Source: Candidatus Iainarchaeum sp.
GTDB taxonomy: Archaea > B1Sed10-29 > WALL01
Reading direction: 5' to 3'
Assembly (NCBI GenBank): GCA_023129115.1
Contig: JAGMCR010000017.1
Span: 1-64,000, forward strand
DNA length: 64,000 nucleotides
The notes under the pieces were generated by a model. The model saw nothing but the letters and a program-made list of their open reading frames with translations, was not told where the DNA came from and made no database searches. Both the position numbers and the translations under genes were made by a program. Each line of letters starts with the position of its first letter. Position 1 is the stretch's first letter. Positions 5,311-54,300 of this stretch are shown here, one piece after another.

Positions 5311-6252
5311 TTATTTCATTCTGTAGTGGTTGGACAGCCGTCCGGTGCGCGGACTCACGGTTTTTCCAATAATCTCCGCGACTGGCTTCTTCAAGTCAAA
5401 GTACTTAGGGCGCTTTCCGCAAAGGAGCTTCAGTGTGGTGTTTACACAAATTCCGAGTTTCCATCTGACCGCAGCTGATTTTTTCCGGTAGCGCTGCATG
5501 TCCTTCTGTGAGACCCGCACGTTCTCCATCGCTTGGGTCTCATATGTGGACATGATATGGTCCGCCACTTCAGTCCGTGTTGTCCCGCGCTCCAGCATCC
5601 CGACCATTTTTTCGTGAAACTCGTCACTATAGTCAAGGAACGGCATGGATTGCGTGAAAGCCTTTTCCATAAGTATGCGCCTGCGCATCGCCGGGCGATT
5701 TCGTTCTTTATGCAGCTCCAGGAGGATTTTTTTGTCTCGGGAGTAGTGTGTTATACTGAGCTCATCAGTAACGTTTGAACTGCCCTGTGCCCGCCCTGGA
5801 GTGATTATTTTCATGGAGTAAAGATCCTGTGATGCAATCATCGAGCGGAGAATGGAGTGGCATCTGTTCATTATTTTTTTTGCGGTTGTATCGTCCACGT
5901 GGCTTTTCTCCTTTATCCGCCTAATGAATTCTCTCGTAAAGTGGTTTGTCGTGAACCAGTCCCTTGCACGGGTCTCCCCCAGTACCTCTTCCAGAATTGC
6001 TTTGGTTTCCGTTTCGTCGTAAGGCACAATCTTAATCACGTTGTCCTTGTTCGCCTCCAAGTCAACGTTCCTCGAGACCTTTAGAGTGTATTCTTCCACC
6101 TCTTTTGCCCTAAACGTTTCCGTCCCGATAGAAAAAATGCCATACCCCTTCTTGACCAAGAGGCCATTCACCACCGTGCCGTTCTTGAGCGTGAGCGTCA
6201 TCAGCCGCCCAACCCCCCTCTTGAGGTTGGTGTCGAGATTTGATTTAGCCAT
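5311..6252 (-). CDS. Hypothetical basic protein, possible Sm-like N-terminus
   Basis: 313-aa ORF directly after ABCE1 with SD-like GGAGGAGTGAGGG; more AT-rich than its neighbours. Confidence 0.65.
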   Translation of the reverse strand: MAKSNLDTNLKRGVGRLMTLTLKNGTVVNGLLVKKGYGIFSIGTETFRAKEVEEYTLKVSRNVDLEANKDNVIKIVPYDETETKAILEEVLGETRARDWFTTNHFTREFIRRIKEKSHVDDTTAKKIMNRCHSILRSMIASQDLYSMKIITPGRAQGSSNVTDELSITHYSRDKKILLELHKERNRPAMRRRILMEKAFTQSMPFLDYSDEFHEKMVGMLERGTTRTEVADHIMSTYETQAMENVRVSQKDMQRYRKKSAAVRWKLGICVNTTLKLLCGKRPKYFDLKKPVAEIIGKTVSPRTGRLSNHYRMK

Positions 6253-6255
6253 CCC

Positions 6256-7992
6256 TCACTCCTCCACCGCGTAGTAATACTCGCCCGTCTTCTTCTGCTC
6301 AGAGTCTTTCTGGGAGTCCGGCTTGTTCGCCCGCGGCCGGCCCGAATCAGGGTCGCGGCGGTAAGTAATCGCCATGCCCTCAAGGAAACGGTTCATGCCC
6401 GAGTGCATCGCCTCCGCGGCACGCGCTTTGCCCGTCTTGCTGGCCTCTCCCTCGAACACCATGAGCCTGTCCGACACATAGTCCTGGAGCGTGATGTCGT
6501 GGTCGATGACCATCGTCGTGATTTCCTGCTTCTCGGTGACCTTCCGGATGATGTCCGCGAACTTGATGCGCTGCTCCACGTCCAAAAACGCGCTCGGCTC
6601 GTCAAGCAGGCAGAGCTCGCAGTCCCGCGCCAGGGCAAGCACAATCCCAACGCGCTGCATCTCGCCGCCCGACAATTCCTTGACGCGCTTGCTGTACAAG
6701 TCCTTCACCTCGGGCTTGAGGTAGGTGTCGAACACCTCGCGGTTGATTTCCTCGCGGCCAATCAATTCCTGGACAGTGCCCTCGAAGTCGCTGGAGATGT
6801 ACTGTGGCTTGTACGAAATCGCGAGCGACCAGTCCAGCGAGGGCTCGCCCTTCTCCACGCCCGCAAGAACCTTCATGAAAGTCGATTTCCCAATAGCGTT
6901 CGGGCCGAGTATCCCAATGACCTCGCCCTGCCGCAGCACGCCGCCCTCTGCGTCCAGCGAAAACGACGCGTACTTCTTGGTGAACGCGGGGTACTCCTGG
7001 TAGTCCCTGCCCTCCCACTCCGTGGCGGGCGGCTTCACCAGGAACTTTATTCCCTCTTTCCTGAACCGCATGTTCTCCGCGCGCAGGTAGCCGTCGAGGA
7101 ACTCGTTAATTCCGACGCGCACGCTCTTCAGCGTCGACACGATGCCGTACGCGCCTGGCTTGCCGTACAGGACGTGCACGTAGTCGCTGAGGTAGTCAAG
7201 CACAGCGAGGTCGTGCTCGACGACAAGCACCTTTTTTGTCTCGGCTAGGCCCCGAATCAGCTTCGCCACGCGCAGCCGCTGCTTGACGTCTAGGTAAGTC
7301 GTTGGCTCGTCAAAGAAGTACATGTCCGCGTCGCGCCCGAGCGCCACGGCAATCGCGATGCGCTGGAGCTCGCCGCCGCTGACCTCGTCCAAGTTCCTGT
7401 CCGCCAGGTGGGAAATCCCGAGCCTGGACAAGTCGAAAGAAGCGCTTTCTTTTTCGAGCAGCTCGCTTACTGTTCCTGGAAACGCCTTGGGAATCAGGTC
7501 GACGTTCTGGGGCTTCGCAGAGATGTGCGTCCCGCCCTCGGCGAGCGCCTCGAGGTGCGTCTGGATTTCGTTGCCGCGGTGCAGCTCAATGACCTTGTGC
7601 CAGTCCTTGTTCTCTCCGCCGAGGTTGGGCACGAGCTGGCCAGCAAGCATTTTGACGAGCGTGGTCTTGCCGGTGGCGTTGCTGCCGATTAATCCGACGA
7701 CGCCTTCCTTGGGGACAGGCAAGCCAAACACGCGGAAGCCGTTCTTGCCGTACTGGTGCATTGGGTTGCCCAATTCTTCGGGCAGGTTAATGATTGTGAT
7801 TGCTGAATACGGGCACTTCTTCGTGCAAATCCCACAACCCGAGCAAAGCTCTTCCGAAATCTCCGGGTAGCCGTCCTCCCCCTTGATTATTGTTTCCTGC
7901 CCCATGCGCACGCCCGGGCAGAACTTGATGCACTCATAGCTGCAGCTCTTGCCGCGGACGCACTTCTTCCTGTCCAGGACAGCTATTCGCAT
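6256..7992 (-). CDS. rli1: Ribosome recycling ATPase ABCE1/RLI1
   Basis: N-terminal Fe-S cysteines (CSGCGICTKKCP), two ABC domains (GSNATGKT, SGGELQ, GPNAIGKS, SGGEMQ), C-terminal GRPRANK. Confidence 0.97.
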   Translation of the reverse strand: MRIAVLDRKKCVRGKSCSYECIKFCPGVRMGQETIIKGEDGYPEISEELCSGCGICTKKCPYSAITIINLPEELGNPMHQYGKNGFRVFGLPVPKEGVVGLIGSNATGKTTLVKMLAGQLVPNLGGENKDWHKVIELHRGNEIQTHLEALAEGGTHISAKPQNVDLIPKAFPGTVSELLEKESASFDLSRLGISHLADRNLDEVSGGELQRIAIAVALGRDADMYFFDEPTTYLDVKQRLRVAKLIRGLAETKKVLVVEHDLAVLDYLSDYVHVLYGKPGAYGIVSTLKSVRVGINEFLDGYLRAENMRFRKEGIKFLVKPPATEWEGRDYQEYPAFTKKYASFSLDAEGGVLRQGEVIGILGPNAIGKSTFMKVLAGVEKGEPSLDWSLAISYKPQYISSDFEGTVQELIGREEINREVFDTYLKPEVKDLYSKRVKELSGGEMQRVGIVLALARDCELCLLDEPSAFLDVEQRIKFADIIRKVTEKQEITTMVIDHDITLQDYVSDRLMVFEGEASKTGKARAAEAMHSGMNRFLEGMAITYRRDPDSGRPRANKPDSQKDSEQKKTGEYYYAVEE

Positions 7993-25260: not shown

Positions 25261-28200
25261 GTGTTTTCTGTGAAAGAGACCAAGCTTAAAGTCCAAGAGG
25301 CAATGCAAAACGACGTGGGCAGGGGCATAGTCCGCATAGACAGCGAGACCCGCGACGCCCTCGGCCTCACGTCCGGCGACATAGTCAAGGTCAACGGCAA
25401 AACAGAGACCGCCGGCGTTGTCTGGCAGTGCTACCCACAGGACGAGGGCCTCAAAATCATCCGCATGGACGGCCTCATCCGCCAGAACGCAGGCGTCGGC
25501 ATCGGCGACTACGTCACCATCGAAAAAACAGACCCCAAGCCCGCCTCGAAAATCACGCTCGCCCCCACACAGCCCGTCCGCTTCTCGCCGGGCTTTGAGT
25601 CATACGTCCAGAAGCGCCTAATCGGCCGGCCACTGGCAAAAGGCGACCGCGTGCTCGTCGGCGTGTTCGGCACAAGCCTCGTGATGGTCGCCACAAAGAC
25701 CACGCCCAAGGGATTCGTACAAATCACGCAGGAGACACAAATCGAGCTCAAGACAGAGCCGATCAAGGAAGTCATCGGCGTCCCCCAGGTGACGTACGAG
25801 GACATTGGCGGGCTCAAGGACGAGGTCCACAAGGTCCGCGAAATGATTGAAATCCCGCTCAAGCACCCAGAATTATTCGAGCGCCTCGGCATCGAGCCGC
25901 CGAAAGGAGTCCTCCTCCACGGGCCGCCCGGGACAGGCAAAACCCTTTTGGCCAAGGCAGTCGCCAACGAGAGCGACGCCAACTTCATCTCCATCCAGGG
26001 CCCGGAAATAGTTTCCAAGTTCGTGGGCGAGGCAGAGGAGCGCCTCCGCCAAATCTTCAAGCAGGCCGAGGAAAACGCGCCAACAATAATCTTCATCGAC
26101 GAAATCGACGCCATCGCGCCCAAGCGCGGCGAGGTCCACGGCGAGGTAGAGAAGCGCATTGTGGCACAGCTGCTCGCGTCCATGGACGGCCTGCAGGCAA
26201 GGGGCAACGTCGTCGTAATCGCGGCGACGAACCGTGTCAACGCAATCGACGAAGCGCTCCGCAGGCCGGGCCGGTTCGACCGCGAAATCGAATTGGGGGT
26301 CCCGGACCGCAAGGGCCGCAAGGAAATCCTCCAAATCCACACGCGCAACATGCCGCTTGATGGTGTGGACTTGGACAGGATGGCCGACATCACCCACGGC
26401 TATGTCGGCGCCGACGTGCAGTCGCTCGCCAAGGAAGCGGCCATGAAGACACTGCGCCGCCTCATCCCAAAGATGAACCTGGAGGGCGAGGACGGCATCC
26501 CGGCCGAGGTCCTCGAGAACCTAAGGGTAACGAAGGACGACTTCATGAACGCGTTCAGGGAAGTCCAGCCCAGCGCCTTGCGCGAAGTATTGGTCGAGGT
26601 CCCGAACGTGAGGTGGGGCGACGTCGGAGGGCTCGACACGGTCAAGAAGCAGCTCAGGGAAGCCATTGAGTGGCCCATAAAAGACCCCAAGATGTTCACG
26701 CGCCTCGGAATTCGGCCCCCGAAGGGCCTTTTCCTGTTCGGCCCGCCCGGCAGCGGCAAGACGCTGCTCGCAAAGGCTGTCGCGACAGAAAGCGAGAGCA
26801 ACTTCATTGTCGTGAAAGGCCCAGAGCTCTTGTCGAAGTGGGTTGGCGAGTCACTGCCATTCGACGAAGAAGTGCTTGTCATCAGGGATGGCTTGCTTGA
26901 GAGGGAAGAAATAGGGAAACTTGTTGAATCCAGTGGGGGGGATGGGGTGATGGCGCCCACTGTCACGGATTCTCTCAAGGCAAAGAACTCAAAAATTATT
27001 GATTTTATCCGCCATCCTGCTCCGCCGTACGTGGACGTACTCGTCACGGAAACAGGCAGGAAAGTGCGGGTCACGGGTGGGCACAGCGTTTTTGTTAAAG
27101 GTGGAAACGGTCTTGAAGAAGTTGTCGCAGAGGAAGTAAAACCAGGCGAAACAAGAATAGCAGTGCCAATGAAGTTAAAGCCAGTTGGCTCTGTTGTTGA
27201 AATCAATTTGTTGGACAGGTTGCAGAAAACCAAGTACGCGCTGTTCGTCAAGAATGGCCAAAAGCTTGTGAAGAAGGCAATTGAAAAGGTTGGGGCTGCA
27301 GAGGCAGCGAGGATCCTGGGCAAAGAGCGAAAGAATATTCATGCGTATGCAAAGAGAGCGGCGCTTCCAGTGGACTCTTTCGTAATGCTTATGGACCACG
27401 CCGCAATTAAATACAATCCGCGAGACCTGGTTATAAGCTCTCGCTATCGGAAGCATGAATTGCCAGCTGTCTTAAAGATGGACAAGGATTTTGGCACGTT
27501 CCTTGGCCTGTGGGTTGCAGAAGGGTCTTACTTGTCCTACGGCGTCCGCATAAGCACTTCAGACTCCGAACTCCCTGTTGTTAAGCGGCTTTGCAAGAAG
27601 CTCTTCAAGAATCTCACTATTTATGAAAAACCAGACTCTAGGGGCAGAGACGTGATAATATCCTCGCTCCCCCTCAAGGCGGTTCTGGAAGAGGTGTTGA
27701 AGCTGAGGGGAGGGGCAAAAAACAAGCGCATGCCCACTGAAGTGCTTTCCGCACCTCTCCCCGCAGTGAGTGGTTTCCTCCGCGGTTACTTCGGGGGGGA
27801 TGGGTATTTCAGTGGGAAGTACGTGGAGGCGAGCACAGTCAGCCAAGACCTTGCAAACGATGTCATGATTGCACTCCAGTACTTTGGCATAGTCGCCAGG
27901 TGCCGCGAGAAAAAAGAGTGGACAGGCAGCACGAGTTACAGGGTCCGGTTCCTTTGGACAGGTTTCCTGAAGAAATTCGCTGAAGAAATTGGGTTCTTGT
28001 ATGGCTCAAAGAACAAGCTATTGAATGCTTACCTCAAAAACATTAAACTAAAAAGAGTATTGCAGGCACCCAGCCAGCACATGGACGGCGACGTTTACTG
28101 GGACCTCGTGGTTGAGAAGACTCGTGAGCTTTACGAGCACCCATATGTATATGACATTGGGGTTAACCCAACACACCGTTTCATCGCAGGGTTTGGCGGC

Positions 28201-41341: not shown

Positions 41342-41680
41342 ATGCCGGTGCTTGACGCCGCAGCAATCATAAACGCCAAGCTGGCGGAAGGCGTGACAGT
41401 GCCCGAAGTCCTTGGCGAGCTCAAGGACTTCGAGTCCAGGGAACTCGCACAGGCAATGGTCTCCGAAGGAAGGCTGAAAGTCCTCTCCCCATCCAAAGAC
41501 TCCGTCGATGCCGTGCGCGACGCGGCGTCCCCCCGCCTCTCGGAGACAGACCTGCAGGTCCTCGCGCTTGGGTTCGAGCTAAAAGAAGAAATAGTCACCG
41601 ACGACTATTCGCTCCAGGCCTCGGCCAAGCGGCTCGGGCTGAAGTTCCGCCCCGTAATCTTCGAGGGAATCACTCACTGA
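41342..41680 (+). CDS. nob1: Nob1-like PIN endonuclease (short)
   Basis: VLDAAA, LSETD and VTDDYSLQ motifs; no Zn ribbon. Confidence 0.75.
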   Translation: MPVLDAAAIINAKLAEGVTVPEVLGELKDFESRELAQAMVSEGRLKVLSPSKDSVDAVRDAASPRLSETDLQVLALGFELKEEIVTDDYSLQASAKRLGLKFRPVIFEGITH

Positions 41681-42452
41681 ACTCTTCCTCTAGCACGGGC
41701 TCGCCCATGAACGACTCGCTCAGCAGAATGCCGATTTCCTTGCGGTACCACACCACCATGGCGAGCAAAATCAATCCCGCAATCATGTAGACGGGGTTGC
41801 CGTACTTCTCCCGGATTTCGCTGGTTATGCTGCGGAGCGAGAGCTGGCTCTGCAGCGGAATCTCTTTCTCGTACAATACCCGGAACTTGCCGCTAGTGAA
41901 CGGCTTCTTGTAGTTCCACTCGTAGTAAGTCACTTTCTGGCCGCTGGCGTCGAGCCCCGGCGCAGTGGAATAGGCCGGCGGCGTGACCTCTCTCGCGAGC
42001 CGCAGCGTGATTGGCATCCCGATTTTGAGCGTCGTCGGTGGGTCGTACGGCAGCGAAATCGTGCTGCCGTCAAAGAAAGTGAACGCGTTTTCGGTGATTC
42101 CCGTCAATTCCTGCTTCCCGACTTTCTCGACGGCCTCTACAACCTCGGGCACGGTGTACTGCAGCACCACGACGCCGAAGTCGGACTGTGTCAATTCCAT
42201 CACGACGTTCTCGTCAGTGGTCTCGTAAGTAATCACTTTCGAAATCCCGTACGCGCCGAGGTCCGGGAAGCTCGCGCCGTCCTTCACGAGCGCCTCGAAC
42301 TCCTTTCCCTCGCCGCTGTCCAGCCGCAGGAAATACTCCTGCTCAACGTAGGCAGACCCGTCCTCGTGCAGGCCTATCCTGATCTCGTGGTCAATCACCT
42401 GCGCGGCTAGGCAAGTCGAAATAATCAGCAGCAAGGCAAGCACGCGCTTCAT
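41670..42452 (-). CDS. Secreted protein with C-terminal membrane anchor
   Basis: Signal peptide MKRVLALLLIISTCLA and C-terminal TM helix. Confidence 0.72.
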   Translation of the reverse strand: MKRVLALLLIISTCLAAQVIDHEIRIGLHEDGSAYVEQEYFLRLDSGEGKEFEALVKDGASFPDLGAYGISKVITYETTDENVVMELTQSDFGVVVLQYTVPEVVEAVEKVGKQELTGITENAFTFFDGSTISLPYDPPTTLKIGMPITLRLAREVTPPAYSTAPGLDASGQKVTYYEWNYKKPFTSGKFRVLYEKEIPLQSQLSLRSITSEIREKYGNPVYMIAGLILLAMVVWYRKEIGILLSESFMGEPVLEEEFSE

Positions 42453-42520
42453 TGCCATAAATAGCGGTATTGTTGTATTTATGGGTATGGCTTTTATTGT
42501 TGTAACCCCTAACTATCGCT

Positions 42521-43129
42521 GTGGTCGAGAAAGTCGAGAAACGAAGGGAGATAACGTCGCTGTACAGGCGGATTGGCCAGCACGGAAAAATAACCCATTT
42601 GCAGAAGGCCCTGGAGGAAGCCAAGCCGGAAAGGGAGCTGGCTTTCCTCAAGTTCGTCGACAAGCACGTTGGCACAATTCCCGAGGACCACAAGCCGACC
42701 ATCTGCTTTCACGGCCTTGCAAAGCCCCTGTTAACACTCGAAAAAGACGAGGACTTTGACGCCGTGTTATTTTTGGTCGGCAAGCAGCTTTCCTCGTTTC
42801 CCGGGGACAGGAAAATTGATGTAATCTATGGCCTCGAACCCATGGTCGGCCAGTTGTCCAAGTTCCAAAAAACTGGGAGAGTCTCTCGCATGGTGCGCTT
42901 CTTGAACACGCATTTGCAGTCCATACCCCAAGAAAACAAGGAGAGGGTGCTGCAAACCACGCCCCACACAATTAATTCCTTTATGCGGCTGGACGAGGAC
43001 CTCTTCCCCACGGCTTTGGGCATAGCCGACAAGCACTTTGCCTCTGTCCCAGACCGCAACAAGGCGTCCGTCTTCACGAGCGACTTACCAAAGATATGCG
43101 ATATGCTTTACGGCCTCTACAGAAAATGA
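42521..43129 (+). CDS. Hypothetical helical-repeat protein
   Basis: Four ~40-aa repeats (see findings). Confidence 0.6.
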   Translation: MVEKVEKRREITSLYRRIGQHGKITHLQKALEEAKPERELAFLKFVDKHVGTIPEDHKPTICFHGLAKPLLTLEKDEDFDAVLFLVGKQLSSFPGDRKIDVIYGLEPMVGQLSKFQKTGRVSRMVRFLNTHLQSIPQENKERVLQTTPHTINSFMRLDEDLFPTALGIADKHFASVPDRNKASVFTSDLPKICDMLYGLYRK

Positions 43130-43138
43130 CGCGCCAGC

Positions 43139-43537
43139 TTATTCCCGCACCCTCTTCCACACTGCTTCAAGCAGCATCGCGAGCAAGTAAAAATACGTGG
43201 TGAACCAGAACAGGGACCACGCCCAGAAGCCCAATATGGACAATACGTCTCCGTGTATCGCCCCGGCGAAAATCACTATCCCAACTGCCATTAGCAGGCT
43301 CGGCGGCGCGTAAAGCGGGAACGTCACAAAGGAATAGGCCTCCTCCACCGCTTGGTACGCAAAGTACGCTTCCGAGTACTCGGCGAACGCTTCATCACAC
43401 GCAGGGTTTTTTTCGTAAAAGCTGCGCTGGCACTGTGGCTCTGTGGGCCGCAGCAGCATTGGCCCCGCGAATACAACCAAAAGCATTGCCGCCACGAGCA
43501 GCAGCCTCGTTTTGTTCGGTCGCCAGTTAATTTTCAT
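43139..43537 (-). CDS. Hypothetical membrane protein
   Basis: Three hydrophobic segments; ATGA overlap with the upstream gene. Confidence 0.65.
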   Translation of the reverse strand: MKINWRPNKTRLLLVAAMLLVVFAGPMLLRPTEPQCQRSFYEKNPACDEAFAEYSEAYFAYQAVEEAYSFVTFPLYAPPSLLMAVGIVIFAGAIHGDVLSILGFWAWSLFWFTTYFYLLAMLLEAVWKRVRE

Positions 43538-44307
43538 ATCTCTATCTTCATAAACTCGTGTATTACTTTGGTGATATTGGACAAGGTTTCCCTGTAGTCC
43601 TCTTTCGTGAGGCGTGTGTAGTCCTTTTTTCTCTCGCTTCCCTTCTCAGTCACGTAAGAAACTGTGACACTTGGCACTCTTATGAGATGGGCTGACGCCA
43701 CGAGACATGCAGTCTCATAATCCCCATAAACACTTGGCCCTTCATTCTCTGCGAAGGAATCCCAGAGTTCATCCCACAATTCAAACGGGTGCTCCTTGAA
43801 CCTCCCTGGCTTGAGTCCGTAGCGGCTGTAGACCTCGCCACCATGGACCTTCAAGCCCATGCCTCTCGCCACCTGTTTCATCTTCTCGGAAAGGCCTTCA
43901 TCAAACAACTCCGGGTTGCCCGGCACGTTGTTGTCCCTGCAAATCCCACAAAGCTCTATGAAGCTCGGGTCGTCTGAATAGGCTCTCGACGGCACAACTA
44001 AATCGCCAGGTTCTGCTTCTGAACTGCATGTGGCTTGGCAACACCCAAAATAGACAATGAACGGCTTTCCGTCAAATTCTATCAAGTCGTCATAAACCAG
44101 CGATACTCCTAAAGCCTGGTTGTATCCATAGCCACCAAAAAGCGCAAACAGCTTTTTTCCGTTCACTTCAGTTTCATAGAACAAGTCAGCAAAATTCTTG
44201 TGCACGAATTTTTTCTTCATCGCGGCTGCTGGTTCCCCGAAGTCGAACTCTTTCATTAATGTTTCCACCGCCAGCTTATCAGTCCTGGCAGTCATTATGA
44301 CCGGCAT
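43534..44307 (-). CDS. Divergent nucleoside phosphorylase-like (PNP_UDP_1) protein
   Basis: GGYG, VYFGCCQA, PGDLVVP and DYETACL..VPSVTVSYVTE patterns; AT-richer than the core genes. Confidence 0.7.
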   Translation of the reverse strand: MPVIMTARTDKLAVETLMKEFDFGEPAAAMKKKFVHKNFADLFYETEVNGKKLFALFGGYGYNQALGVSLVYDDLIEFDGKPFIVYFGCCQATCSSEAEPGDLVVPSRAYSDDPSFIELCGICRDNNVPGNPELFDEGLSEKMKQVARGMGLKVHGGEVYSRYGLKPGRFKEHPFELWDELWDSFAENEGPSVYGDYETACLVASAHLIRVPSVTVSYVTEKGSERKKDYTRLTKEDYRETLSNITKVIHEFMKIEI

Positions 44308-44311
44308 ACAA

Positions 44312-44425
44312 TCAAATCTCTATCTTCATAAAGTCCTTCGCGACAATAACATTGTCAAACAGCTGGATCTCAGCTGGCACGATAGACTTGGGGGGTGCCA
44401 TTCGGCACCCCCCAGAGGCAGGCAT
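44312..44425 (-). CDS. Putative 37-aa mini-ORF 2
   Basis: TGATG overlap with mini-ORF 1; ends FDNVIVAKDFMKIEI*. Confidence 0.35.
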   Translation of the reverse strand: MPASGGCRMAPPKSIVPAEIQLFDNVIVAKDFMKIEI

Positions 44426-44538
44426 CAAATCTCCAGCCTCATAAAGTCCTTCGCGACAATAACATTGTCAAACAGCTGAATCTCAGCTGGCACGATAGAC
44501 TTGGGGGGTGCCATTCGGCACCCCCCAGAGGCAGGCAT
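44425..44538 (-). CDS. Putative 37-aa mini-ORF 1 ending in the RNase Z tail
   Basis: ATG overlaps the rnz stop (TGATG); MPASGGCRMAPPKSIVPAEIQLFDNVIVAKDFMRLEI*. Confidence 0.35.
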   Translation of the reverse strand: MPASGGCRMAPPKSIVPAEIQLFDNVIVAKDFMRLEI

Positions 44539-45440
44539 CAGATTTCCAGCCTCATAAAGTCCTTCGCGACTATGACGTTATCAAACTCTTTCTTCGCGTC
44601 CTGCAGCAATTTGTCCAATTCCTCTTCCTTGTACCTCGTCGAGAAGTGCGTGAGCACCAATTGCCTCACGTTCGCCTGGCGAGCGACCTCGCCCGCGTCC
44701 CGCGCGGTCGAGTGCGTGGCGTCCCTCGCGCGGTCACTGGCGTCCTGAGCAAAAGTCGAGTCGTGCACCAGCAAGTCCGCGCCCTCCGCAGCCTTTATCG
44801 TGGAGTCACACATCTCGGTGTCGCCCGTGTAAACAAACTTGATTCCCTTTTCCCGCGTCACGTAGTCCGCCGGCTTCAATTTCTTGCCCTTCCACTCCAC
44901 GGTCTTGCCGGCCTTCAAGTCCCCGTACAATGGCCCCGGATTAAGCCCAATCTTCCGCAGCTTTTTCTCGTCCGCGTGCAGCCGCTCCTTCTCCTGGAAC
45001 ACGTAGCCGAAGCCCGGCCGCGAGTGCTTTGTTGGAAACGCGGACACGGTGAACTCGGGCTCGTCGACAACCACTCCTTCCTTGACCTCCTCGACCACGA
45101 GCTCGAACGTCTTTTTGCCCTGCTCCACCAGCCGCATCACGTCCTCGACCAGCGTCTTGATGCCCTTTGGGCCGTAGATATAGAGCGGCTCCGTCCTCTC
45201 GCGCCAATAATTGGACTGGATAAACCCAATGAGCCCAAAGTAGTGGTCGCCGTGGAAGTGCGTGATGAACACGCGGCTAATCTTCATGGGGCTGAGCTTG
45301 GCAATCGCGAGCTGGCGCTGCGTGTTTTCCCCGCAGTCGAACAAGAACCTGTGCTCGTTGTACTGGAAATGGATTCCGGGGTGGTTCCGGTCCGGCATCG
45401 GGATTCCGCAGCTAGTGCCAAGGAATACGACTTCTGCCAT
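44538..45440 (-). CDS. rnz: Ribonuclease Z
   Basis: FLGTS..P, FDCGE, ITHFHGDH, YTGDT, HDSTF, HST and LTHFSTRY motifs. Confidence 0.96.
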   Translation of the reverse strand: MAEVVFLGTSCGIPMPDRNHPGIHFQYNEHRFLFDCGENTQRQLAIAKLSPMKISRVFITHFHGDHYFGLIGFIQSNYWRERTEPLYIYGPKGIKTLVEDVMRLVEQGKKTFELVVEEVKEGVVVDEPEFTVSAFPTKHSRPGFGYVFQEKERLHADEKKLRKIGLNPGPLYGDLKAGKTVEWKGKKLKPADYVTREKGIKFVYTGDTEMCDSTIKAAEGADLLVHDSTFAQDASDRARDATHSTARDAGEVARQANVRQLVLTHFSTRYKEEELDKLLQDAKKEFDNVIVAKDFMRLEI

Positions 45441-45479
45441 ACGATAGCTATTTATTAACTGTGTATTTAACTATGCACC

Positions 45480-46766
45480 ATGCAACAGGAATGGCTCGCA
45501 AAAAAACTCGTCAACTACACGCTCGGAATCGGGCAGAAAGAAAACACGGAAGGCCTGCGAAAGGCCGAGCGAAAATACGGCAAAAAAGTCCGCACGCTCC
45601 TCAAGAAGAAAAAAATCACTGCCACCAGGCGCAACGCCGCCATGCTCGACGAGCTCAGCAAAGTGGACTACGGCCCGCTCTTCGTAAAAAAAGGAAAGAG
45701 CTACGTCCCCAAGCCCACGGTCGGCCACTCCGTGATAATCGCGTTCAACGCGGCAAACAAAAAATATGCCGAAGCAGTCCGCCGCGAGTGCCTCCGCAAT
45801 GGGGCGCACGCCCTCATGCTCGAGCGCAGCACCAAAGCAATCCGCGAGGCCTACCAGCTCTCGCCCATGGGCGCAATCCGCGAGCTCTCGCCAATCAGCG
45901 CCGCCCTCCACTCGACAGCCGACTACTACATCAACCTCGAGGCCATCGAGAACGAGTTCTGGAAAAAAGGAATCAATCCAGCCAAGTTCATGGCCGCAGC
46001 GCCGTCCAGCATGAAGCTCCACGAAATCCGGGACAAGCGCATGCAGCGCTGGTGCTACGTTGGCTGGCCCCACCCCCAAATCGCGAAAGAGCTGGGGTTG
46101 CCCGCAGCCAAGTTCAAAAGAATAGTCGACGGCTCCATCGAAGAGTCCTTCACGCCGCGCATGAAAAAGCTCGTCGACGGCTACTACCACGCCCTCAAGG
46201 GCTCCAGCAAAATCCACATCGTCCACGACGACGGCACTGACCTAAAGTTCTCGGTGCGCGGCCGCCGCTTCATGCGCGACGACGCAGTCCTCGGCGCCGA
46301 GGACATCCGCAACAAGGACGTGGGCATGAACATTCCCGGCGGGGAAATCTTCACCGCGCCACACGAGTACAGCGCTAACGGCATACTCAAAATCCCGAAG
46401 AACATAATCCCCGGCCACGGCCTCGCCGAGGGAATCGAGCTCTTCTTCGAGAAGGGGAACGTCGTCGACTACGGCGCCAGAAGGCACCGCGACTACCTGA
46501 CAAAGTTCTTCGCCGAGAACACGGGAGAGTGCCGCCGCATCGCGGAGCTCGGCATCGGCTGCAACTCAAGGGCTGACTTCACGAACGGCTACATCATCGT
46601 GGACGAAAAAATCAAGGGCACCCTCCACATCGCAATCGGGTGGAACATCGGGTACGGCGGCAAGAACAACGCGTCGTCGCACCTCGACTTCATCAAGCCC
46701 ATGTACAAGGGAAGCCTCTACGCGGACGGCGCCTTGGTCATGGACAAGGGAAAGCTGGTGGCGTGA
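45480..46766 (+). CDS. Aminopeptidase, M29 (aminopeptidase II/T) family
   Basis: NIPGGEIFTAP, AELGIG, DEKIKGTLHIAIG and SHLDFI motifs. Confidence 0.88.
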   Translation: MQQEWLAKKLVNYTLGIGQKENTEGLRKAERKYGKKVRTLLKKKKITATRRNAAMLDELSKVDYGPLFVKKGKSYVPKPTVGHSVIIAFNAANKKYAEAVRRECLRNGAHALMLERSTKAIREAYQLSPMGAIRELSPISAALHSTADYYINLEAIENEFWKKGINPAKFMAAAPSSMKLHEIRDKRMQRWCYVGWPHPQIAKELGLPAAKFKRIVDGSIEESFTPRMKKLVDGYYHALKGSSKIHIVHDDGTDLKFSVRGRRFMRDDAVLGAEDIRNKDVGMNIPGGEIFTAPHEYSANGILKIPKNIIPGHGLAEGIELFFEKGNVVDYGARRHRDYLTKFFAENTGECRRIAELGIGCNSRADFTNGYIIVDEKIKGTLHIAIGWNIGYGGKNNASSHLDFIKPMYKGSLYADGALVMDKGKLVA

Positions 46767-51389: not shown

Positions 51390-54300
51390 ATGCCGAAGAA
51401 AAGAGTGGCAAAGAAGAAACCGGTGAAGAAGAAAGCCGCGGCAAAGAAAAAAGCTCGGGGGGCGCCCACGGCAAAGCCGGCGGCGCCCCCCAAAGCAGCG
51501 AAGCCGCGGGCAAAGCCTTTGACGAAGACCACACAGTCCCTCCCCATCACCATCAAGTCCACGGCCGAAATCAAAATCCCTGCCAAGACAGTGGATCAGG
51601 TCCTCGGCCAGGAAAAGGGCGTCGAGATAGTCAAGAAGGCTGCGCGCCAGCGGCGCAACGTCTTCCTCCTCGGCGAGCCTGGCACTGGCAAGTGCGTCGC
51701 CCCGGAAACCTTAATAACACTTGCCGGTGGGGAAGTACTGCCTGCAGAGTCTGTGTTCAATCGAGCAAAAACAAATGGCATTATCGTTACACAGGATTCA
51801 GACAGAACATTACTTTCTGACACGGGCTTAAGGACGTTATCCATTAACAGGAAAAACGTAAAATTAACAGAGGAAGACGTGCTCTATGCAGCAAGGTTCA
51901 AGAATCTAAAGCAATTATTCAGAATCAAGACTTCTCTTGGTTCTGAGGTAACTCTTACGGATAATCATCCATTGCTCACTATAACAAAAAGGGGTGAGTT
52001 GAAGTGGGTGCCTGCCAAGGATTTGTCAAAGGGGGGTAGGATAGCTAGTGCGAGAAGCGTCACATTCCCGGAGATAACTGACATAGATTTCATTGACGAC
52101 CTTGATGGAGACATTACCTTATGCATACTGGATAGAGAGTTCGGTCTAGAGGAGGCAAAGAAGAAAAAAGTATCTTATGACAAGATAAGCCACATCAGAT
52201 ACAAAACAAGTGTTACTGATTCCTCCTCAAAAAAAGTCAAGGTGGTGGGCAACTGGAGCGAGGAACTAGGCAGATTCTTAGCGTATATGCTTTCAGAGAC
52301 GTCTATAACAAGGGATAGGAACATTATTTTCACAAACAACGACAAAGCAGCAGTAACAGACTTCGCGTTTTTGGCTCACTCACTCTTTGGAATTAGATTC
52401 AACGTAGCGAAGAGGAAAGAGCATTGGTATGCTCAAGCCAGTTCTTCATCACTTTGCCGTTTTTTGAACCAAGTCTTTGACGTAGCGTTATCCTCTCCCA
52501 ACAGGTCTCACATCACAAAATTCCCGCGCCGGATGTTGTCCGCACCACTGCCAGTCCTTGCCGCGTTCATAAGGACTTACTATGATATGGAAGGCCATGT
52601 GCAAAAGCCGCGCAGGCGGTGTATGGAACTCTGTAGTGGAAGTAAAGAATTTACCAGGGTTATGCAGATTGCACTGCTAAGGTTTGGCATAATATCGAGA
52701 TTAAAGACAAGATACAATGCTGCTACAAATACCAAGGGCAAGAAAAGGAGAAAATATTATTACCTTTTCATATTCGGCGCTGAAAATCTAAGGAAGTTCA
52801 GGGGTTCCATTGGTCTCCACAGCGGTAGGAAGAGAGAACGCCTTGAAAGGTCTATTGTTATAAAGCCCAATCCAAATTTGGATGTAGTCCCCAATATTTT
52901 CGAGGACTTAAAGTTTTTGAAGGAAAAACTAGAGTTCAAGAATACTGACGTGACAGATTACCCTGCTACATTTTCTCGTTATGTCCATGGAAAAAGAGAG
53001 CCTAGTAGGAGGGGGCTTGCCGATATAACTGAAAAAATTGCTAACGTGTACTTAAGCAAGCAGAAAGTGGCAGGAGTCTATGATGAGGAAGTAGAAGACA
53101 CAATCATAAAGTTGTCCTGTCTTACAGATTCTGATATATACTGGGACAAGATTGAGAGCATAACAAAAACCAAAAGTAGCGATTATGTCTATGATTTCAC
53201 GGTTCCAACAAACCACAGTTTCTTGGCTGGCAATATCCTGCTGCATAACTCCATGCTTGGCCTCGCGATGGCCGAGCTCCTGCCGGTGAGCAAGCTGCAG
53301 GACGTCCTTGTCTACCCCAATCTTGGCGACCCGAACCAGCCAAAAATAAAAACCGTCAAGGCCGGCAAGGGCCTAAAAATTGTCGAGGAAGAGACCAAGA
53401 AGGCCATGGAGGGCGGCAGCTCCAAGCAGATGGCCGGCTTCATCGCGTTCCTCTTCCTCTTGTCAATCCCGTGGGTATTGCTCTGGCTTGGGTGGCTCAG
53501 CGAGCTGCTCGCCGCGGCGTGCCTCATCGTGGCGGGCATGCTCGGAATCGGCGTAGTCATCGGGATGCAGATGCGGCCCCGCACAGACAACACGGCGCCA
53601 AAGCTCCTGGTGGACAACTCCCGCCAGAAGCACGCGCCTTTCATCGAGGCGACTGGCGCCAAGGCCGGCGCGCTCTTGGGCGACGTGAAGCACGATCCGC
53701 TCCAGTCCGGCGGCCTCGGCACTCCCGCCCACCTCCGGGTCATCGCGGGCATGATCCACCGCTCGCACCTCGGCGTATTGTTCATCGACGAAATTGGCAC
53801 GTTGTCAGCAAAGTCCCAGCAGGAATTATTGACCGCGATGCAGGAGAGGAAGTTCTCAATCACCGGGCAGAGCGAAATGTCGTCAGGAGCAATGGTGCAC
53901 ACTTCGCCCGCGCCGTGCAATTTCGTGCTCGTCGCCGCGGGCAACCTGCTCGACCTGAAGAACATGCACCCCGCATTGCGGAGCCGCATCCGCGGCTACG
54001 GCTATGAGATCTACCTGAACGAGAAGATGCCGGACACTCCGGAGAACCGCGTGAAAATCGCGCAGTTCATCGCGCAGGAAGTCCAAAAGGACGGCAAAAT
54101 CCCGCACTTCTCGCGTGCGGGCGTCGAGGCCGTCATCCGCGAGGCGCAGAAGCGCGCTGGGAGGAAGGGCAAGCTGACCGTGAAGCTCCGCGAGCTCGGT
54201 GGGCTCGTCCGGGCCGCGGGCGACATCGCTCGCGCAGACGGCTCTGCGCTCGTCGAGCCGAAGCACATCAAGGCCGCGAAGAAACTGGCGCGCACGATGG

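Follow-up and report, generated by a model that had tools for sequence, protein, structure and literature searches.

The DNA analysed here, called the window below, is a stretch of 64,000 nucleotides from a Candidatus Iainarchaeum sp. (contig JAGMCR010000017.1, positions 1 to 64,000). It carries rnz, the gene for RNase Z, and our subject is the 3' end of rnz, which is repeated downstream of the gene together with a two-hairpin spacer element of about 64 nt (65 nt at rnz) that we name E64. The genome to which the window belongs, G000 (1.25 Mb, 19 contigs, 88.6% complete), was compared with two congeners, G001 and G002; C-numbers denote contigs of the genome named.

The rnz 3' end and its 113-bp array

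The product of rnz matches Pfam Lactamase_B_2 with 82.8 bits and a tRNase Z endonuclease domain with 39.9 bits, and orthologues were found in 27 of the 30 relatives searched. On the minus strand the gene is followed by two 113-bp units, each made up of a 48-nt rnz tail and a 65-nt E64 copy, and then by a PNP-like gene (Table 1). Tandem Repeats Finder reported the region as a single array with a score of 482, which spans 44311-44586 and comprises 2.4 copies of period 113 at 93% matches. This agrees with the 113-bp recurrence of the rnz end described in an earlier note on this DNA, all of whose sequence observations proved correct.

Table 1. Features around the 3' end of rnz, with positions in the window (ORF, open reading frame; aa, amino acids)
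Feature	Position	Strand	Evidence or remark
rnz (RNase Z, 300 aa)	44538..45440	minus	ORF list; C-terminus FDNVIVAKDFMRLEI, then stop
A, in-gene rnz tail including stop, RL type, candidate imported/recoded copy	44538-44585	minus	tail comparison
E64 copy 1, 65 nt	44473..44537	minus	covariance model, 79.9 bits
A', first displaced tail copy	44425-44472	minus	patchwork of A'' (5' part, last codons) and A (AGGCTG block)
E64 copy 2	44360..44424	minus	covariance model; 1 base from copy 1
A'', KI-type tail, adjoining the start of PNP (likewise in G002)	44312-44359	minus	5/48 differences from the G002 rnz tail
Putative 37-aa bridging ORF, first unit	44425..44538	minus	ATG overlaps the rnz TGA (TGATG); runs through E64 into A'
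Putative 38-aa bridging ORF, second unit	44312..44428	minus	ends 4 nt before the PNP ATG
PNP-like gene, 257 aa, ends FMKIEI and stop	43534..44307	minus	Pfam PNP_UDP_1, 31.6 bits, residues 35-252
Left 17-bp direct repeat TTTATGAAGATAGAGAT, within A''	44316-44332	minus	exact match
Right 17-bp direct repeat TTTATGAAGATAGAGAT, PNP 3' end	43538-43554	minus	exact match
132-aa membrane-like ORF	43139..43537	minus	start overlaps the PNP stop; no Pfam/NCBIfam match
202-aa ORF, no known family	42521..43129	plus	no Pfam/NCBIfam match
262-aa secreted-protein gene, proposed ancestral downstream partner of rnz	41670..42458	minus	gene order in G001 and G002

The three 48-nt tails are referred to as A (the in-gene end of rnz), A' (the first displaced copy) and A'' (the second). 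Six of the 48 bases distinguish A' from A, all of them at third codon positions and all synonymous, as had been reported previously for the first copy. Between A' and A'' only the block AGGCTG/AAGATA differs, by which RL becomes KI. A and A'' differ at 9 of 48 bases, corresponding to eight codon differences of which six are synonymous, and the two spacers are one base apart. This pattern is consistent with A' being a hybrid of A and A'' produced by unequal recombination between them. A diversity-generating retroelement was rejected as the source of the variation, as no reverse transcriptase (RVT_1) was matched in G000 and the base differences between the tail copies (T/C, C/T, A/T and A/G) are not adenine-specific.

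The junction downstream of rnz differs in each of the three genomes. In G002 the gene ends in FMKIEI and a PNP-like gene starts 4 nt further on, ends in FMKIEI as well and is followed by the homologue of the 262-aa gene; the junction contains no E64, and the rnz tail is single. The spacer between the rnz end and the PNP start in G000, TGATTGTATG, and its G002 counterpart, TGATTATATG, are of equal length and one base apart. The G000 state equals that of G002 plus two E64 units upstream of the PNP-like gene and two ORFs (132 and 202 aa) downstream of it. In G001 rnz ends in FMRLEI and is followed by a 78-bp insert and a second 48-nt tail copy, which differs from the first at 3 of 48 positions (our own count) and whose stop overlaps the start of the 262-aa homologue (TAATG); a PNP gene is missing there. 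The E64 covariance model gave no match in the 78-bp insert, of which a 24-nt piece recurs at four other places in G001.

Because of these three junction states we take the 262-aa gene to be the ancestral partner of rnz, the stop of one overlapping the start of the other. It had been proposed that rnz was once coupled to the gene at 43537; neither congener has that gene at this place, and it is the 262-aa gene that is joined to rnz in G001. The comparison further indicates that the PNP-like gene entered before the split of G000 and G002 and that its frame ends in a duplicated rnz tail. The view of the rnz tail as a recurrent insertion hotspot with variable cargo is borne out by the three genomes, which carry a 78-bp insert (G001), the PNP-like gene (G002), or the PNP-like gene, E64 and two ORFs (G000).

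Together with one sample variant, four states of the junction were found. Sample variants were sought in assembled Logan contigs and unitigs from three runs of one study, X1 and X2 among them, in which the array is partly without contig cover. In X2 an 838-nt contig links PNP, by way of A'' and a single E64, to a tail copy with two other letters, beyond which come 12 letters that match A and not A'. We infer that it represents a one-unit allele whose tail copy is A. In X1 the repeat unitigs have depths of 62.5 and 50.9 against about 19 in the flanks, so the X1 array has at least two units, perhaps more, and the number of units would vary between samples. The two units had been interpreted as separately accumulated insertions; the patchwork of A', the single difference among the 65 bases of the two E64 copies and the apparent one-unit allele are explained most simply by local amplification of the second.

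It seems extremely improbable that the array is an assembly artefact in which two variants of the rnz end from different strains were joined by way of a repeat. The genome is a short-read metagenome assembly, and the Logan unitigs do break inside the array. Yet the independent X2 contig from another sample spans PNP, A'', E64 and, on the reading given above, reaches into A; contigs of all three runs carry the junctions; the depth of the repeat unitigs is about three times that of the flanks and not a fraction of it; and the same layout occurs at other loci in a single-cell genome and in a second congener.

E64, a dispersed two-hairpin repeat

With the 289-bp array as query 24 matching places were found in G000, 23 of them outside the array. 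A profile of the spacer (nhmmer) detected 51 copies in G000 at E<1e-3, and a covariance model built from 22 copies detected 60 in G000, 36 in G002, 10 in G001 and none in 38 genomes of other genera. The 113-bp units, which had been regarded as empty, therefore each hold one copy of a dispersed repeat.

Both hairpins of E64 covary. Paired cells amount to 90.3% compared with 79.6% after shuffling, 9 of 16 pairs change on both sides, and none of 500 shuffles reached either value. For copy 1 at rnz a fold of -36.8 kcal/mol (z = -4.95) is predicted. The 3' half is the most conserved part (consensus ACGTGCCAGCTGAGTTTCAGCTG). The two ends, TGCCTGCCTCTGG and TTCAGCTG, are not complementary, and pairing is confined to the two internal hairpins.

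E64 is found mostly at the ends of tRNA and protein genes. G000 has 38 tRNA genes, and 24 of the 60 copies are situated no more than 230 bp from one of them, in most cases a short way downstream and on the same strand; by our own arithmetic, chance would account for about one. E64 is an ORF-less two-hairpin repeat that appears to be mobile within one archaeal genus. A search of public collections with an exact 23-nt E64 motif yielded no viral contig, six short metagenome contigs and seven places in one single-cell genome; no recombinase was seen adjoining E64 in these matches, none of which covers the rnz locus. Rfam gave no match in 42000-46500 of the window at E values up to 1. In the literature on DPANN miniature inverted repeats, M. 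jannaschii palindromic repeats and archaeal tRNA-gene hairpin repeats no description of E64 was found.

One metagenome contig covers an orthologous tRNA-Ser site (L069:1145-1198; G000:C4:64047-64120). Its flanks are about 81% identical to those in G000. The E64 of this contig is 98% identical to the copy on C12 of G000; against the copy that G000 itself has at the tRNA-Ser site, blastn gave no match with E below 1e-10. This points to independent or replaced E64 insertions at one site. A second hairpin-rich family with the core CAGCGTCCTGGGGGGCGCAGCCCCCC...GGGAAGC was observed beside E64 downstream of tRNA genes (G000 C4:7040-7125, C12:84480-84590, C7:13990-14050 and C1:65560-65660); small repeats are therefore nested in these tRNA-flanking regions.

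Duplicated gene ends around E64 and their origin

Direct repeats flanking E64 were scored at 51 copies and at 2000 random control positions. The score exceeded the 99th percentile of the controls at 16 of the 51 copies and the 95th at 21; two of the copies tested are those at rnz, and a few high scores include neighbouring repeats. The duplicated stretches consist of local sequence and measure 14-88 bp, with 16-31 nt for tRNA 3' ends (at least seven tRNA genes) and 21-88 nt for the 3' ends of protein genes. The 3' end of E64 abuts the downstream copy; other small repeats may separate the upstream copy from E64. At two sites that are empty in sister genomes the stretch in question is present a single time there, the flanks overlapping at C19:13k (14 bp in G002, 24 bp in G001) and at C19:64k (87 bp in G002). 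In G001 (L063:1447-1900; G001:C34 ~6223-6676) three E64 copies follow one another at a period of 110 bp. They separate four copies in which the 5' end (MRVGIVEVLGAEEVND) of a 147-aa gene on the minus strand is present, so that gene starts and not gene ends are stacked; in copies 3 and 4 nearly all differences from the in-gene copy are synonymous, AGA/CGT among them. The junction represented by G000:C5:40307-40520, with E64 and a duplicated gene tail, is likewise variable, since in the corresponding region of G002 (C1:83040-84550) a convergent 493-aa gene is located.

The duplicated gene ends differ from one another in the manner of alleles. Seven pairs at six loci were compared: two pairs at rnz, the pairs at C5:40k, C19:64k and C13:112k of G000, and two copies of the G001 5' end. 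Synonymous and non-synonymous codon differences number 6/0 and 6/2 at rnz and 5/0, 6/3, 5/2, 6/2 and 6/1 in the other pairs. When the in-gene copy was substituted at random in a simulation, as few non-synonymous changes were obtained with P values from <5e-5 to 0.0034. The differences include the codon switches AGC/TCG and AGA/CGT, and TGA versus TAG at the same position. Translation of the displaced copies does not explain the synonymous pattern, since at C5:40k and C13:112k they lie outside any open frame. A concentration of the recoded positions towards E64 is seen at rnz alone, and not at C5 or C19.

The same observations bear on the possibility that the array is kept for a function, the bridging ORFs handing ribosomes from rnz to PNP or the hairpins serving as terminator or RNA stabiliser. 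The TGATG overlaps, the 37- and 38-aa frames open through both units, the same E64 frame with an ATG open at C19:13k and the start of many E64 copies with TGAATGCC or TGATGCC would fit such a role. Nevertheless, we regard it as improbable. Of the frames leading through E64 to displaced copies, those at C5:40k and C13:112k are closed and that at C19:64k is open but has no ATG, so that an ATG-started bridge is present at only two of five protein-gene 3' loci. Moreover, the 24 copies beside tRNA genes have no translation in their surroundings, and G002 possesses the same gene pair without any unit. In annotation, repeated tails and small bridging ORFs of this kind should not be called genes or frameshifts.

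Comparison with the congeners indicates which copy is the older. A'' differs from the G002 tail at 5 of 48 positions, whereas A differs from it at 10 and is nearest to the G001 tail (7 of 48), with which the AGGCTG block is identical; rnz as a whole is 79% identical to that of G002. A'' is therefore probably the resident, older rnz end, and A looks like an import, in line with the proposal that the in-gene tail was recoded and the older one displaced. At C5:40k, too, the displaced copy is nearer to G002 (7 of 39) than the in-gene copy is (10 of 39).

We considered two ways in which such a constellation could have arisen. In the first, E64 would behave like a transposable element of the miniature inverted-repeat kind (MITE) and duplicate a long, variable target in place, by staggered breaks and fill-in or by template switching, and the copies would then diverge asymmetrically: the in-gene copy, freed of the start signals of the next gene, would drift synonymously, while the displaced copy would be constrained as promoter or ribosome-binding site. 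The duplicated stretches are indeed local, single in empty sites and of varying length (14-88 bp); Shine-Dalgarno-like motifs and the stop/start overlap lie within the duplicated stretch at C19:13k and at rnz of G001; and the two rnz tails of G001 are only 3/48 apart. A class of this kind has also been described for restriction-modification genes (PMC2853133). Several findings make this course unlikely all the same. Compared with both the in-gene copy and G002, the non-coding displaced copy at C19:64k shows five synonymous third-position changes in succession, and at C13:112k the displaced copy keeps the other type of stop codon at the same position. With 5/48 differences from G002 and 9/48 from A, A'' has its closer relative in G002; A and A'' are therefore not the closest-relative copies expected of an in-place duplication after the G000/G002 split, and A shares AGGCTG exactly with G001. 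Finally, no open frame contains the displaced copy at C5:40k, and conservation of a whole block of 39-48 nt is hard to attribute to regulatory constraint.

The second possibility, which we prefer and to which we assign a probability of roughly 0.55, is that homologous recombination carries modules of a gene end and E64 from one lineage to another, where they take the place of the resident tail, which stays behind as a relic, after which unequal recombination amplifies the unit. The rnz stop would formerly have overlapped the start of the next gene, and DNA could therefore enter only with a copy of the tail on both sides of the insert. Three entries can be read from the junction: that of the PNP-like gene, with a duplication of 17-24 bp, in the ancestor shared by G000 and G002, that of an unrelated small repeat in G001, with a duplication of 48 nt, and that of E64 in G000. 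In the last case E64 would have arrived as the gene tail of a diverged relative plus E64 and recombined with the resident tail, with no cut-and-fill target duplication. The imported tail A would now end rnz, and the resident A'' would have been pushed downstream, still joined to PNP. Unequal recombination of A with A'', accompanied by heteroduplex repair, would then have made the second unit with the hybrid A'.

More generally, a tail-E64-tail allele could be copied into the single tail of a relative either by a double crossover with the tails as arms or by Campbell-type entry of a small circle of tail and E64, the downstream relic being the resident tail or part of it. Stacks could be built by repeated entry or by unequal recombination, and the G001 stack of three E64 copies would fit either. 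The first arrival of E64 at a new site may be a true long target duplication.

A number of findings weigh against spread by recombination. Flank repeats above the 95th percentile are lacking at 30 of the 51 E64 copies, and some of the high scores include neighbouring repeats. The tail comparisons extend over 48 nt and thus depend on few sites. The direction is not uniform, since the C19:64k locus shows the opposite, with slightly fewer differences from G002 in the in-gene copy (17/87) than in the displaced one (20/87); the displaced copy is the nearer in two of the three loci tested. The last two synonymous differences of A misfit a single crossover. A donor allele, that is, an rnz ending in RL followed by E64, was not found, and no nuclease or recombinase linked to E64 was found in the G000 assembly. 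The evidence on unit number comes from assembled contigs only, and the first arrival at a new site is left unexplained.

The genomes of DPANN archaea are tiny and densely packed with genes, stop codons overlapping start codons, and the rnz junction touches on the question of how such compact genomes take up DNA without breaking genes. If gene-end modules do spread by recombination, the displaced tails would be dated relics of gene flow between lineages, usable for measuring recombination among uncultured archaea, and the system would be a miniature counterpart of the mobile-ORF gene hybrids of mitochondria. It is possible, though doubtful, that E64 goes further and constitutes an ORF-less homing-type selfish element of DPANN archaea, which travels between lineages with the adjoining gene end, overwrites the resident end by homologous recombination, leaves stacks of fossil ends and, by opening overlapping junctions, enables compact genomes to gain genes; a nuclease that cuts unoccupied ends might assist it. 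The rnz locus is a clear example, and a comparatively well-dated one, of how this hairpin element, found across the genus, travels together with gene ends that resemble alleles.

Mobility enzymes, known systems and the remaining genes

The search for mobility enzymes in G000 covers an 88.6%-complete assembly, and the absences reported here apply to that assembly. One tyrosine recombinase was found. It is XerA-like (131 bits, cut-off 220), reaches 46.8 bits with the integron-integrase model (cut-off 265) and is encoded on another contig than the rnz inserts of 65 bp and 774 bp. No serine recombinase, IS110, GIY-YIG or HNH protein, no Y1 (RAYT) transposase (PF01797, 0 matches) and no reverse transcriptase was detected, and of DDE transposases only a 20-bit fragment. 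The statement that no integrase is linked to the locus thus stands.

The interpretation that had been attached to this absence was an attachment-site or integron-like cassette system in which a recombinase acting in trans integrates circular cassettes, namely the 113-bp units and a 778-bp PNP circle, at the rnz 3' end. A regenerated gene end with the displaced one behind it does match the layout of integrative elements, E64-ended insertions are flanked by the duplicated tRNA 3' ends mentioned above, and an enzyme could lie in the missing part of the assembly. Since no integron integrase, serine recombinase, reverse transcriptase or Y1 protein was found, however, an integron-like cassette system is not supported, and we consider site-specific integration very improbable. 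E64 is present at dozens of unrelated targets with very unequal duplication lengths, which a core-specific integrase would not give; it forms two separate hairpins and not one attC-like stem; and the end of the PNP-like gene is without E64.

LAGLIDADG_3 gave 16 matches in G000 and one each in G001 and G002. Two of the G000 matches lie within the window (27766-27993 and 52554-52814). Most, being situated inside ORFs of 860-1724 aa, are probably inteins. Three free-standing LAGLIDADG genes of 206-257 aa were observed beside tRNA genes (G000 C4:23669-24316, C14:10500-11120 and C13:96344-97117), two of them 0.1-0.35 kb from E64, both in tRNA neighbourhoods. LAGLIDADG proteins were nevertheless rejected as drivers of E64, as no repeat brackets gene and E64 together and no flanking repeat is shared. 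A role of E64 as guide-RNA scaffold of TnpB was rejected likewise: C3, which carries three of the four TnpB-like genes, is without E64, the fourth gene, on C13, has no E64 closer than 20 kb, and at C5 and C19 the recoded positions are not gathered near E64.

Relative to known kinds of elements, E64 departs in at least one defining feature from MITE, repetitive extragenic palindromes (REP), integrons and elements carrying an integrase. With MITE-type repeats and with REP and bacterial interspersed mosaic elements (BIME) it shares that it is short, GC-rich, hairpin-forming, multi-copy, mostly intergenic and devoid of a coding gene of its own. Multi-copy extragenic palindromes, as in REP/BIME, were found (60 copies), but neither the RAYT partner of REP/BIME in G000 nor the terminal inverted repeats, the short target duplication of fixed length and the related transposase of MITE; in addition E64 is accompanied by recoded gene-end copies. 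In integron insertion the target is not duplicated, and attC is one long imperfect hairpin with paired R''/R' core sites. E64 resembles this in being a small structured element after genes, as does the PNP-like gene in looking like a single-gene cassette, but it lacks an integron integrase, and it folds into two independent hairpins whose ends do not pair like R''/R'.

Integrative elements that restore the 3' end of a protein gene, such as prophage e14 in icd of E. coli, possess an integrase and one fixed target. A recoded replacement end in the gene with the displaced original end downstream is what we find as A and A''; in contrast to such elements, E64 has no integrase within or beside the insert and many targets.

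Insertion with a long and variable target duplication has reportedly been described by Nobusato et al. 2000. The cases of Furuta et al. 2010 concern restriction-modification genes in bacteria with near-identical repeats (44/46 to 47/47), and no archaeal case passed the screen (PMC2853133). In the same account the insert lacks a mobility gene and has on either side a direct repeat longer than 30 bp, of which the genome with the empty site has one copy, and amplification through the repeats is proposed (PMC2853133). E64 loci agree with this in that such a repeat is single in the insert-free genome (the rnz tail in G002, 87 bp at C19:64k). They differ from the cases as presented there in that the insert is a dispersed 64-nt element and the copies have diverged like alleles instead of remaining near-identical (9/48 between A and A'', 14/39 in the last 39 nt at C19:64k).

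In its layout the mobile-ORF (mORF) gene hybrid of mitochondria is the nearest published analogue of the E64 loci. Hybrids are described for atp6 of Allomyces macrogynus and for atp6, atp9, cox2 and nad3 of Glomus; gene body, foreign C-terminal piece, mobile insert and a relic of the native C-terminus that is nearer to the sister species follow one another (PMC3630166). E64 loci present the same order, copies that differ largely by synonymous changes (the seven pairs above) and, at two of three loci, a relic nearer to the sister species. Judged against that account, they differ in that the mORF insert encodes a LAGLIDADG or GIY-YIG endonuclease responsible for its mobility, whereas E64 is a 64-nt insert without any ORF, and in that E64 occupies about 60 sites, including tRNA ends and one gene 5' end, and forms tandem stacks.

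As to the remaining genes, the PNP-like ORF was found as described earlier, ending in FMKIEI between the two 17-bp repeats and overlapping with its TGA the ATG of the next ORF (ATGA). When up to four mismatches were allowed, TTTATGAAGATAGAGAT had only five matches in the window, four of them at the rnz-PNP locus. The GC content of the gene is 0.47-0.51 against 0.58-0.61 in the flanks. Among 31 genomes of the class it occurs in G000 and G002 only, and a collection of 5.8 billion proteins contains just two such proteins, both in the rnz-PNP arrangement; a homologue outside this arrangement, with a C-terminus of its own, was present in neither. The earlier note had named an invariant rnz-PNP pair and PNP homologues natively ending in FMKIEI as what would speak against insertion. 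The first part is partly seen, as G002 shares the pair and both genes end in FMKIEI there, while for the second no homologue elsewhere was found.

The 132-aa and 202-aa ORFs (42521-43537) lie between the PNP-like gene and the 262-aa gene and have a GC content of 0.52-0.53. Neither was found at the rnz locus of G001 or G002, and they therefore represent a further insertion at the same junction. The two 17-bp copies are 778 bp apart. At one place both of them read TTT in G000 and both read TTC in G002, an agreement that suggests gene conversion between the copies and thus concerted evolution of the two repeats.

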